Source: Zootoca vivipara (lineage: Eukaryota). From it: a stretch of 64,000 bases of DNA. This document shows, in pieces, positions 12,606 through 31,586 of the stretch. The notes beneath the pieces are model-generated. The model did not search any database. It was not told the origin of the DNA and saw only the letters and a program-made list of their open reading frames with translations. The stretch spans positions 35,340,001 through 35,404,000 of the forward strand of contig NC_083280.1 of the NCBI RefSeq assembly GCF_963506605.1, given 5' to 3'. Position 1 is the first letter of the stretch. The number at the start of each line of letters is the position of its first letter. The position numbers and the translations under genes are program-made.

Positions 12606-12864
12606 ATTTAAGCTCCATTAAACCTATTCAGCATTCATTTTTATACAAATGGAGGTGCTTACCCATCGCTATATGCATCAAACACAACATGTTGCGCATG
12701 AATACAAGTAGATTGGGCCCTAAAATAATCACCAGTATGTATATATACATGTTCACATGTATACACAGTTGACACATTTGTGAACTGGAACAAAGGAGGA
12801 CACCACAAGCAATACTCTGTGAAAGACTGGGAGAAAGAAACAGCTCACTAACACTTTAATGAGG

Positions 12865-13077
12865 CAAAATAAAAAAATTCCTTCAGTAGCACCTTAAAGA
12901 CCAACTAAGTTTATATTTTGGTATGAGCTTTCGTGTGCATGCACACTTCTTCAGATATCTGAAGAAGTGTGCATGCACACGAAAGCTCATACCAAAATAT
13001 AAACTTAGTTGGTCTTTAAGGTGCTACTGAAGGAATTTTTTTATTTTGCTTCGACTCAGACCAACACGGCTACCTAT
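12865..13077. mobile_element. Penelope-like element (PLE) inverted-pLTR mini-insertion, copy 1
   Basis: Perfect 186-bp palindrome at 12864-13049 centred on cagatatctg, followed by the tail gactcagaccaacacggctaccta. TSD ctttaatgagg (12854-12864 and 13078-13088). Confidence 0.85.
12956..12992 (+). ncRNA. Minimal type I hammerhead ribozyme motif (mirror copy on the - strand at 12921-12957)
   Basis: UAU-CUGAAGA-A-GUGUG(CAUG)CACAC-GAAA-GC-UC/AUA. This gives the hammerhead core CUGANGA...GAAA...UH, stem II, a palindromic AGCU stem III and a short stem I. Confidence 0.7.
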
Positions 13078-13317
13078 CTTTAATGAGGATTTGAGATTAG
13101 GGGAAAAAATTAAAGGGAAGGGTTGTATAATCCTATTTCTTGGTTATATTTGGAAACCTGCAAGAAGCTCTTGAATGTCTGCAGCTTGTAAACACTGATT
13201 AACAAAAGTCATGCCATTCAGAAATGCTGATTTCCTTATACAGCTTTCACCTGCTCAAGAGACAGTCAATGAACCGTCAAAACTAAAAAAGAGAGAGATT
13301 ATTTTGGAAATAGAATA

Positions 13318-13861
13318 CAGTCATACCTTGGTTTAAGTACGCTTCGGTTTGAGTAGTTACAGGTAGGTAGAGATGTTGGTCTGAGTAGAGACAAAATAAA
13401 AAAAATCCTTCAGTAGCAACTTAAAGACCAACTAAGTTTTTATTTTGGTATGAGCTTTCGTGTACATGCACGAAAGTATCTGAAGAAGTGTGCATGCACA
13501 CGAAAGCTCATACCAAAATAAAAACTTAGTTGGTCTTTAAGGTGCTACTGAAGGAATTTTTTTTTTTCGGTTTGAGTACTTTCAGTTTAAGTACTCCACG
13601 GACCCATCTAGAACGGATTAACCCACTTTCCATTATTTTCAATGGGAAAGTTTGCTTCAGGTTAAGTATGGACTTCCAGAACCAATTACACTCATACTTT
13701 GGGTTAAGTACGCTTCAGGTTGAGTACTCCGCAGACCCATCTGGAACGGATTAATCCACTTTCCATTACTTTCAATGGGAAAGTTCACTTCAGGTTAAGT
13801 ATGCTTCTGGTTAAGTACTGACTTCCGGAACCAATTGTGTACTTAAACCGAGGTACCACTG
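13318..13861. mobile_element. Tc1/pogo (Tigger-like) MITE with internal duplication, interrupted by PLE copy 2
   Basis: TA-flanked TIRs cagtcataccttggtttaagtac / gtacttaaaccgaggtaccactg. A block at about 13590-13700 is repeated at about 13720-13845. Confidence 0.85.
13356..13565. mobile_element. PLE inverted-pLTR mini-insertion, copy 2 (hammerhead motif at 13476-13513, +)
   Basis: Starts gttacaggtaggtag. Inverted arms. TSD ttcggtttgagta (13343-13355 and 13566-13578). Confidence 0.85.
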
Positions 13862-28218: not shown

Positions 28219-28942
28219 AATTTACAGAGGTGGGGAGCAGCAGCAGCAGCCCCCCCCAAAAAAATTCCTTAATGGATACCCGCCTGTTCTGAAACAAAGG
28301 AATCTGACATTTCCAGAACAAATACAAGAGGAGTATCTTATAATAGTGCCAGAGTAAATAACCTTTCATTTTTCTAGATAAAAATCCTTCATCCTTCCAT
28401 TATCTTCCTGACTCCTTGCTCTCTTCTCTCTCTTCTGCAAGATGTCATTAAGTTGGGAACAAGGATTCAAATCTGCCTGAGGTGCCCTTTCAATATCTGC
28501 CCTGATGACAGCTCCCTGGGTACAAAGTAATGACACCGGTATTATCTGAAAACGACCCACTCCTAATAGATTATGGGACATGTTTCAGAGCTTTGCCCTT
28601 TTATTTTTGGCTACCTCCCCAGCGATTGTTACTTACTCTTCACAGTGACAGTTGCCCTGCTGCCAGCTGTATTTTACTGTCATGTAGAAAGAATCCTTAA
28701 GGTTAAATCCCCAAACTGATGACCACCAACTGAATAAGGCTTGTAAGATCCTATATACCCGAAACACAAGTTTGCAATTCCTTTGTTTTTGTAGTACTGA
28801 TGATATTTAGCCTGATCAATACAATTTTGTTTACCCCTACTAAATATGGTTATTCCTTTAAAAATTTTTTAGAAGTGTTCTCTTTTTCAACTAATCTAGC
28901 CCTCGTTGCTAATAAAACATTTATAGCAAATGGGTAACTTGG

Positions 28943-29158
28943 GTTACAGGTAGGTAGCCGTGTTGGTCTGAGTCGAAGCAAAATAAAAAAAATTCCTTTA
29001 GTAGCACCTTAAAGACCAACTAAGTTTTTATTTTGGTATGAGCTTTCGTGTGCATGCACACTTATGTGTATCTGAAGAAGTGTGCATGCACACGAAAGCT
29101 CATACCAAAATAAAAACTTAGTTGGTCTTTAAGGTGCTACTAAAGGAATTTTTTTACT
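28943..29158. mobile_element. PLE inverted-pLTR mini-insertion, copy 3 (hammerhead motif at 29068-29105, +)
   Basis: Starts gttacaggtaggtagccgtgttggtctgagtcgaag. Inverted arms. TSD tgggtaacttgg (28931-28942 and 29159-29170). Confidence 0.85.
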
Positions 29159-31381
29159 TGGGTAACTTGGGGATGTTTTTTTCAACAATGTACCCCCCCT
29201 TTCCACAAGCCTTGCATCCACACACATACGGTATAATACAGCAACTTCCTCCTGTTGCATTTGTTGAGTGTTTCTCTCTGCCAAGCGGTTGCTTGCAGTA
29301 TGAAGAAGATTGAGACCACACAAAGAGTCCTCCAGTGATCTTAAACCAGCACTGAATATTATTTTGCAATGGACTTACAATTACAGAAATAAGGTGGGAA
29401 AATCTCATTCCCCATCCTCCCCCAATTGCTGTTTTCATGTTACTACTTAAAGGAAAGGCATACAAATCATAACTGAATTATAAACTGATTAGTTTTAAAG
29501 AACAAGGTTGCACTCCAAAGCATGCCTAGTTGAAAGTTAGCACCATTGAAATCAATGGGATGTTCTTCAAGGAAAGTATGCTTAAGAGGAGAGTGTTAAT
29601 GTAAATTAGTTATTTTTCAGCAATCTGACTCGGACCATTTTTCATCCTTCCTCCCACCAGCAATGTTTGTGTGTGTTCCACCGGTACAACTTTGACAAGG
29701 GGGAGCAGTTGCATTTATTCCTTGCTGGTGGGTTTGCAGAAACGTCTGGTTGACCATCATATAAAATTGGATGTTGGACTTGATGATCCTGTCTAAATCA
29801 GAAGGGCTTTCTTTATGCTCCCCTTTGTCGGCAACAGCTGTCATTTTATCGCACTCGAGTTCAGTGATAGTGTACTAAGAATGGATACAGTTCTACCAAT
29901 GTAAATTTCATTGCTTCCGTTTATCTTGCTCCTGTACATTTGCACGCTTTGGGATTTATAGTGAAATAGTCCCTGTAAATACATACCCGGTAGCAACCAG
30001 CTATATTTTTAAGTAAGGTATTTATATTGGAATGTTTGCATCCACCCTCTGGCTTAAACCCAGTTACTCATATTGGTATAGATTGCTATAGAAACCAATA
30101 GATCTATCGGTGCACAGTTGTTAAGAATGTGCTTGTATAATCAGTGAATATACACATAATGTATTACTTCTGGCAATGGGAATCCATTTGTTTCTTCAGA
30201 AAGTCTGAGCTTTATAAACAGAGCATTTTATTATTTGTCATATTTAAACATTTCCTCCTCTGCAACAAGTACTGTTTCGAGTGATTGGTTTTCAGTGAGG
30301 TGACTATAAAATACTTCATAGCCCTGGTATCTCTTAATTTTATGGATGGCAAAGATTAGCATGAGGAACGTCTAGTAAAATAACTACTGCTATTAGTGGA
30401 TAAAAGTTGGCAGCGGAAGGCATTTTAAATAGCCCCATTTTCTCCTAAATAGAGGCTGATTTAATTGAAATCTACTAATACCTTTGAGACAGCTGCTTTT
30501 TCACAAGCTACTGTCAGCCCAGAGGGTGGGGGTGTTTAACAGCAAGTGTTCAATTTGCTGATAGGGTGCTTTGGCCAGGCCTACCCAGAGACATTTCACA
30601 CCTGGGGAATAAAATGTAAATTGTACCCCAACTCCTACTAAGTAGCATGGTGCATGATCCACTGGGAAGTTCTCCTGCATAAGTTGCATGTTAATTAAAA
30701 GGAGCTGTTCTCATGCGCACCTCCTGGTCATTTTCCAACAAGGCTTCTGCGTGTTGAGTCATGGTAGATTGTGCTACCTGGGCAATTCATCTCATGGTAA
30801 GGACCACCTCTGTCTCTGTCCTACTGAGACATGCTTTGGGCTTCATCAGAAGCTGCAATTTGTGGCCTGGTTCATCCATGCTAAAATCCCCCCCAAGAGG
30901 CGCAATCCCCTGGTTCCAGCCATTTAAAGTAACCAGGAGGTGGAAGCCCACTGTCTTCCCAGCAGCAATTTGTGCAAGTGCAGTGGGTAAAAAATGCTCA
31001 CATGAATTGCCACCTGCAACCTGAAGTACGCCATGGCCTTGTGTTCCTTCCTCTCCTCCCTCCCCTTGCAGGCACATCCACTGAGCTCTCGCCACATTAG
31101 AGATCTTAGCAGAGACGAATCAAGCCAGAACTGCTGAATTCCTTTGGGATGGTAATGCTGTATCCTTCAACTATATGAACCTTCTTGTTGGTTAATATCA
31201 CAGATTAATTCCCATGAATGAACTGGTTTCCATCTGGGCCATGTATATCCTTTTCCATGATGCCAGGAAAGGCAATCCTTCAAACCAATTCCAAAGCTGA
31301 TTTTTTTATACGGAGGATAAATCATCAGCTGGTTTGAACTCCCTGACTGACAACACCTATTGCATGTACATTGTGGGCTTG

Positions 31382-31586
31382 GTTACAGGTAGGTAGCCGT
31401 GTTGGTCTGGGTCGAAGTAAAATGAAAAAATTCCTTCAGTAGCACCTTAAAGACCAACTAAGTTTTTATTTTGGTATGAGCTTTCGTGTGCACTGTATCT
31501 GAAGAAGTGTGCATGCACACGAAAGCTCATACCAAAATAAAAACTTAGTTGGTCTTTAAGGTGCTACTGAAGGAATTTTTTCATTT
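31382..31586. mobile_element. PLE inverted-pLTR mini-insertion, copy 4 (hammerhead motif at 31495-31532, +)
   Basis: Same layout as copies 2 and 3. TSD tacattgtgggcttg (31367-31381 and 31587-31601). Confidence 0.85.

Follow-up and report, generated by a model that had tools for sequence, protein, structure and literature searches.

Short palindromic insertions in the genome of Zootoca vivipara as probable strong-stop products of a Penelope-like element

Four palindromic insertions and their anatomy

We analyzed a 64,000-nucleotide stretch of the Zootoca vivipara genome (assembly GCF_963506605.1, contig NC_083280.1, positions 35,340,001 to 35,404,000; hereafter the window), which carries four short palindromic insertions derived from a Penelope-like element (PLE), each built around a hammerhead ribozyme motif. 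An initial annotation of the window had proposed these insertions, and we confirmed their positions and the presence of a separate target site duplication (TSD) of 11-15 bp at each. Unit numbering below refers to the parent element, with the G of GTATCTGAAGA as +1. Statements on published work refer to the accessible part of each cited text. The components of the four copies are as follows.

Copy 1, left TSD: 12854..12864, CTTTAATGAGG, 11 bp, repeated at 13078-13088
Copy 1, short arm: 12865..12957, - strand, parent unit +2 to about +95, carrying a hammerhead core on this strand
Copy 1, long, tail-bearing arm: 12956..13077, + strand, unit +2 to about +123, with hammerhead core
Copy 2, left TSD: 13343..13355, 13 bp, repeated at 13566-13578
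Copy 2, long, tail-bearing arm: 13356..13471, - strand, unit +15 to +130, CUGAAGA missing
Copy 2, short arm: 13476..13565, + strand, starting exactly at unit +1, whole hammerhead
Copy 3, left TSD: 28931..28943, 13 bp, repeated at 29159-29171
Copy 3, long arm: 28944..29063, - strand, unit +11 to about +130
Copy 3, short arm: 29066..29158, + strand, starting 2 bases before +1 (G+1 is 29068), whole hammerhead
Copy 4, left TSD: 31367..31381, 15 bp, repeated at 31587-31601
Copy 4, long arm: 31382..31492, - strand, unit +20 to about +130
Copy 4, short arm: 31492..31586, + strand, starting about 3 bases before +1 (G+1 is 31495), whole hammerhead

The inserts measure 213, 210, 215 and 205 bp, respectively. 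Each is a single head-to-head pair, not a head-to-tail tandem, and consists of two arms of the same sequence and unequal length (about 93 versus 130 nt). Copy 1 contains the perfect 186-bp palindrome that had been annotated (12864-13049); its two arms are joined via a TA overlap and its helix I lacks G+1 (3 bp). The predicted ribozyme cut at 12988/12989 on the + arm of this copy is correctly placed relative to the unit, 12956 being +2. The description of inverted arms meeting at the hammerhead core holds for the head-to-head arrangement, but the CUGAAGA core is present on both strands in copy 1 only; the long arms of copies 2-4 begin downstream of it (+15, +11 and +20). The sets of variants differ among the four copies, and a private G>A variant is common to both arms of copy 3.

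Copy 2 lies within an older, TA-flanked repeat that ends in terminal inverted repeats and resembles a miniature inverted-repeat transposable element (MITE) (window 13315-13865). Two old fragments of the same pseudo-long terminal repeat (pLTR) and tail, 82-86% identical, are found at 62023-62063 and 63841-63879.

The parent Penelope-like element

The parent was reached through a genomic match, L028, in which an arm is joined to an inverted fragment of an open reading frame (ORF) with a GIY-YIG domain. We used this fragment as a query against the 1.44 Gb genome; 150 of 9,100 candidate matches were scored, and all 150 were 99-100% identical to it, many with an open frame of 925 codons. The parent unit is 3,030 bp long and arranged as tandems, and divergent arms are also present. 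Within the unit, the hammerhead occupies +1..+38 and the tail runs to about +135; a 901-aa protein is encoded from an ATG at +138. RVT_1 (E 6.5e-12) is followed by GIY-YIG (E 6.2e-5) in one frame, which bears out the PLE origin that had been proposed. DKG and YIDD motifs are visible in the protein, and a CCHH endonuclease motif can be recognized by eye (CQQC lies between GIY and YIG, followed further on by two His). The linker between reverse transcriptase (RT) and endonuclease (EN) contains CNKPRCQLC, a CX4CxxC. A CX2-5CxxC linker defines the Neptune/Nematis clades (PMC8557442), and by this definition the linker sequence would place the parent among them. Neptune is likely rather than Nematis, since a recent preprint detected no clades other than Neptune and Poseidon in vertebrates (bioRxiv 10.64898/2026.07.22.740005).

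Tandem and partial-tandem pLTR units, an inverted copy and a tail at one end, all of which are hallmarks of EN-containing (EN+) PLEs, were found in the parent. At least four upstream variants (subfamilies A-D) have the +1..+130 segment in common. The four palindromes in the window are the shortest insertion class of a PLE with intact copies in the genome and not a separate family.

Several arms are longer than one whole 3,030-bp unit (L141/L142 at G000:C5:37712200-37723000, L143, L144 and L149), and tandem or circular templates are therefore needed for these. At L077:4320-6742 (G000:C1:2777327-2779741) four units of 598 bp, each with an internal deletion, are arrayed head to tail (positions 2645-3030 joined to 1-216 of the unit with a 4-nt overlap, 99.5-100% identical to the parent); the array has a 9-bp TSD. 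Each of these units carries the promoter region and the hammerhead; the array is retrozyme-like and may derive from a circular template.

A common plan for insertions of all lengths

In 15 of 19 long insertions, which we picked from the protein matches, one end falls at +90-105 and the other at +123-138, with arms of up to two whole units; the other four are complex or incompletely retrieved. We also examined a positional sample. Of the 14,959 exact tail matches counted genome-wide it comprises the first 100; it is anchored on the tail and confined to the initial 5 Mb of a single contig. Arms were classed against eight references; a single parent reference makes other subfamilies look truncated. 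From 213 arm matches we dropped 40 that correspond to an unrelated repeat inside reference D2, leaving 173. The 3' ends of 161 arms form two classes, with 64 at 83-103, 91 at 123-141, none at 104-122 and 6 below 83. One-armed copies with TSDs that end at either +93 or +130 also exist. The two 3' end classes are what one would expect to see in a genome if RT started at two sites separated by the length of a tail, as was shown in vitro for an Anolis PLE that cuts and extends both strands (PMC11167929).

Two-armed mini-insertions (minis) account for 31 of the 100 tail matches and short tail arms without a near partner for 25, while 37 extend further upstream and 7 are unresolved. Extrapolated to all 14,959 tail matches, the first figure predicts several thousand hairpins of 75-90 bp in this genome (roughly 4,600). 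The size is uniform, 25 of 35 arm pairs spanning 195-232 bp.

The local density of the insertions, which had been described as high, is indeed raised but nothing exceptional: two exact tail 23-mers lie in the window versus 0.66 expected (P=0.14). P is lower when arm-level patterns are counted, although arms belonging to one insertion do not constitute independent events. Four matches within 19 kb also occur at two places on C1 besides a tandem array (among the first 100 tail matches), and we rejected local clustering as a feature.

Junctions differ between copies

If the ~210-bp palindrome were a unit of its own, its center and termini should be common to its copies. We read 27 junctions from 32 arm pairs (5 were not read by the script), and all 27 junction strings differ; the copy-1 junction is present at only 82 loci. 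The joins show overlaps of 1-4 nt or templated filler. Both outer ends vary between copies, and the arm variants follow several parent subfamilies. The uniform size and the share of two-armed tail matches would also be expected of a non-autonomous family of the MITE or retrozyme kind, in which the entire palindrome is transcribed and inserted anew in trans, and non-LTR retrozymes do derive from pLTRs (bioRxiv 10.64898/2026.07.22.740005). Yet such a family would not be expected to show differing junctions and variants that track several subfamilies; retrozymes are head-to-tail tandems, and the minis lack a TATA-like box. We consider mobilization as a unit, one of the options raised in the initial annotation, very unlikely.

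The two arms of one copy differ at 0.59 positions versus 2.85 for random pairs (n=34, P 5e-5), and so both derive from a single source element or RNA; conversion between the arms at a later time may also have contributed to their identity. The fillers at L002, L021, L063, L106, L170 and L190 consist of repeated 8-30 nt snippets of arm ends, a pattern that suggests repeated template jumps.

Arms begin at a putative transcription start site

The 5' ends of the arms peak sharply, unlike those of a random length series of truncated elements. Thirty of the 173 arms start at -2..+2, which is 27 times the per-base rate at -189..-17 (the arms are not fully independent). Another 50 start at +3..+32, as trimming would give. 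Genome-wide, there are 20,380 exact matches to the core versus 10,355 to a pattern with upstream read-through, although the two patterns differ in mutability and the read-through pattern may miss subfamilies.

The base before +1 is T in all parent references. At arms throughout the genome it is G in 3,674 cases versus A or C in 1,838. At a control position, the base before +5, where the parents also have T, the counts are 104 for G versus 660 for A and C, and the G excess at +1 relative to +5 corresponds to an odds ratio of 12.7. At 29 of 30 loci with GG the parental upstream sequence is missing directly before the G, and therefore the extra G is not a subfamily variant. An extra G at the junctions of full-length L1 insertions is ascribed to copying of the cap (PMC11702581).

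A TATA-like 8-mer is present at -31..-24 in all seven subfamily references, while the 23 bases between it and +1 differ among them. A TATA box at such a distance has the usual spacing for RNA polymerase II. The long arm of L141 comprises two whole units and likewise ends precisely at +1. The minis themselves have no TATA-like box or upstream promoter. Taken at face value, these features indicate that the RNA would begin at helix I, with +1 as the transcription start, and that the extra G would be a copied cap. The 3' end of each unit may then promote the next unit, as in PMC2377424. A pair consisting of TATA and a TCACT initiator (Inr) is known from rotifer pLTRs (PMC3846280).

A splice acceptor could place a boundary at the same position. 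In subfamilies B-D (L078, L082, L107) position 0 is preceded by an acceptor-like (Y)nNAG, a pyrimidine tract with AG, and an intron in D. virilis ends at helix I (PMC4209133). Subfamily A, however, has no AG, no upstream exon is common to the arms that start near +1, and splicing at the boundary would not give GG at +1. If the boundary were instead a structural pause, RT should have stalled on the 3' side of the structure. We regard an acceptor or a pause as highly improbable.

The hammerhead is probably a passenger

The motif has the features of a minimal type I hammerhead that had been described for it: the CUGANGA and GAAA boxes, a UH site and a palindromic dimer helix III. Helices I and II are present in the monomer fold, which is no better than that of shuffled sequences (z -0.78). 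The Rfam check recommended in the initial annotation gave no hammerhead family among the 42 matches in the window at E<=1, and only sub-threshold microRNA (miRNA)-type hairpin matches over the copies; thus the hammerhead call rests on motif anatomy. A whole mini folds very stably (copy 3, -133.9 kcal/mol, z -21.9, with 0 of 200 shuffles as good), and in its transcript the 3' half of the core is locked in a 76-bp stem. Such hairpins are a possible source of double-stranded RNA (dsRNA) and cruciforms.

The core motif is intact in more than 20,000 arms, and dimers of minimal hammerheads cleave, at low rates (PMC4209133), so cleavage might be thought to set the template, either with RT stopping at the 5' end of a cut RNA or with the minis as self-cleaving RNAs. 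Arms would then start at +35, the ribozyme cut. Only 2 of the 173 arms start at +33..+37, and 109 arms genome-wide have A or G before +35, against 3,674 with G before +1. Moreover, the arms contain the uncut site, the core is partly locked in the stem, and ribozyme mutants left insertion in vitro unchanged (PMC11167929). We consider a role of cleavage the least probable of the alternatives; the ribozyme, enclosed in the hairpin, probably travels as a passenger.

RNA reads and the neighborhood of GPC1

We used about 6% of each of three raw RNA runs from fragmented libraries. Depth ranges from hundreds to 3,000 over +1..+130 and is below 12 over the ORF, and most aligned reads continue into unlike sequence. 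The reads therefore come from copies inside host transcripts and cannot show the start. The only listed clusters of read starts, of 7 and 5 molecules, are at -25/-23 in one run. At L144:2564-2700 about 2,000-5,400 reads per 7.5 million records have the +1..+130 segment joined to unlike sequence; copies of this segment are common passengers in host RNA.

The nearest gene landmark lies downstream of the insertions:

GPC1, first coding exon: 52890..53054, + strand, ORF with glypican-1 chains at E 2e-9

The exon is 21-40 kb downstream of the window copies; for copies 3-4 the distance is 21-24 kb. RNA depth over the unique flanks of these two copies is zero except for a value below 1 in one of the three runs. 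With the core buried in the hairpin as well, the suggested self-cleaving transcripts upstream of GPC1 found no backing, and no function at GPC1 is indicated.

Two unrelated features complete the window. A separate family of short hairpin repeats is found at 12495-12578, 27527-27610 and 39238-39321, with sub-threshold mir-5408 matches. At 44884-44956 there is a tRNA-like Rfam match (43.6 bits), possibly the head of a short interspersed element (SINE).

A proposed double strong-stop model

We propose that the palindromes arise as "double strong-stop" products of the parent PLE, an explanation that we consider likely. The cut was staggered and left overhangs of 11-15 nt, as the TSDs show. RT would then prime on both strands of the cut, at about +93 and +130, as the end classes and the published in vitro work suggest. 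The template would be the element's own sense RNA, likely capped, and both complementary DNAs (cDNAs) would run off its 5' end, the cap, at the first hammerhead base. After trimming, the cDNAs would be end-joined head to head via 1-4 nt of microhomology or filler, through a pathway that we infer from the joins. A template with a second, downstream pLTR, provided by tandem read-through or a circle, would yield a long, ORF-bearing copy, whereas use of the first pLTR would yield a dead hairpin of ~210 bp without an upstream promoter. As RT would start inside the pLTR, near the RNA 5' end, ORF-bearing copies would need a downstream pLTR. The fixed size would follow because RT runs off the RNA 5' end after the first 95-130 letters, and the hammerhead would be central because it is first in the transcript, not because of cutting. 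Among the steps, the parent, the two 3' end classes, the TSDs, the pile-up at +1 and the position-specific G are observed, as are the TATA-like box at -31, the same-source arms and the variable junctions; both arms would be primed on target DNA. The initial annotation had offered a stereotyped abortive integration product as one option, and our data support it.

Several observations weigh against this model. The 5' starts are spread over -2..+2, the positional sample has the narrow origin given above, and the acceptor-like sequence of subfamilies B-D offers another source of a boundary. The extra G is absent from all four window copies. When 30 GG loci were classed by script, only 6 had a plainly extra G, 9 were explained by a neighboring G (in the target, the opposite arm or duplicated element sequence) and 15 lay inside filler, with L164 and L174 misfiled, as judged by eye, in opposite directions. 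This split indicates that microhomology selection contributes; a C added to the cDNA end and pairing with any near G would account for all three classes. A cluster of read starts at +1 was not seen in the three RNA runs, where copies in host transcripts swamp the signal. Finally, the long arm is more trimmed in 23 pairs versus 10 (2 ties, P=0.035), and in eight long insertions (L064, L080, L086, L145-L147, L155 and L157, three of which were picked for this feature) the ends of the two arms lie 0-36 nt apart at arbitrary positions, several with hairpin-like junctions. Plain run-off does not explain arms that stop together or the trimming of the long arm. A second RT that trails the first on one RNA and then jumps to the first cDNA might fit both.

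Fold-back self-priming, in which one cDNA or antisense template snaps back and copies itself, with +1 still an RNA end or a pause, has been proposed for head-to-head PLE palindromes (PMC3846280). It would account for the near-perfect hairpin junctions and equal arm lengths of some long insertions and for the identity of arms within a copy. Nevertheless, fold-back from the tail-bearing arm leaves that arm fuller at the center, which is the opposite of what is usual in the sampled pairs and in window copies 2-4, and fold-back from the short arm cannot supply +94..+130. The one-armed copies with TSDs that end at +93 or +130 and the extra G at sense +1, which points to a sense template, argue against it too. 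We think fold-back unlikely; a hybrid, with the short cDNA jumping onto the long one, may occur.

Comparison with known systems

EN+ PLEs share with the present element the head-to-head arms, a tail at one end (30-40 bp there), TSDs, partial tandems, an RT with a C-terminal GIY-YIG, and TATA/Inr-like pLTR motifs (PMC8557442, PMC3846280, PMC2377424). Their inverted repeats are of variable length, with self-priming or an antisense template suggested, and the accessible text of these articles describes no run-off size class or cap-like G. The D. virilis promoter differs from the parent described here in being TATA-less and starting upstream of an intron. In the Anolis Poseidon element PAc (PMC11167929), RT starts at two internal sites separated by one tail, and as in our proposal both strands are cut and extended on an uncut RNA template; insertion does not require the ribozyme. 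PAc differs in that it belongs to the Poseidon clade, without a linker zinc finger, and in that its ORF begins within the hammerhead, as against +138 in the present element; neither 5' junctions nor products of inverted or palindromic form are a subject of the accessible part of that study.

Minimal hammerheads of metazoan PLEs agree with the present motif in their long helix II, a helix I of 4 bp, an additional base ahead of helix II and a palindromic AGCU that replaces helix III (PMC4209133). Hammerhead pairs on opposite strands, 100-700 bp apart, were reported in Schistosoma and ascribed to truncation, with no mechanism in the accessible text (PMC4209133), whereas here such pairs are tied to a start site. 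Non-LTR retrozymes (PMC7229834, bioRxiv 10.64898/2026.07.22.740005) are likewise ORF-less and pLTR-derived and carry a type I hammerhead, but they are head-to-tail tandems with at least two ribozymes per strand, while the minis are head-to-head with at most one per strand. L1 twin priming (PMC11702581) also joins two target-primed cDNAs by microhomology and shows an extra G at complete 5' ends; it copies non-overlapping parts of the RNA, whereas in the minis both arms copy the same part and a palindrome results.

Retroviral minus-strand strong-stop DNA is a short cDNA made by internal priming near the RNA 5' end. It is tRNA-primed and transferred, not integrated, and in this it differs from the PLE minis.

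Implications for Penelope-like elements

Inverted copies, tails and minimal hammerheads of PLEs are already known, and inverted pLTRs and close minimal hammerheads on opposite strands are in print (PMC8557442, PMC4209133). The explanation for the fixed size of the palindromes is apparently unreported: in the literature searched, which left subscription papers and Repbase reports outside, no strong-stop, cap-G or fixed-size palindromic PLE insertion is described. The PLE replication cycle has been described as undefined (PMC8557442), and earlier work reached no decision on template polarity or on how head-to-head palindromes originate (PMC3846280). Somewhat more cautiously than for the palindromes themselves, we favor the view that PLEs integrate via two-ended target priming on a capped sense RNA that starts at the first hammerhead base, and that use of the 5'-most pLTR makes both cDNAs run off at the cap and leaves thousands of fixed-size palindromes in the genome.

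If true, this would settle the polarity of the template, explain the head-to-head inverted pLTRs and give a reason for the need for tandem or circular templates. The family is young, numbers ~15,000 exact tail copies, retains intact parents and can be read to the single base at its junctions, so that questions about the PLE cycle can be addressed by counting in genomes and tested with one recombinant protein. Palindromic copies of this kind can also be mis-annotated as MITEs, miRNA precursors or retrozymes.

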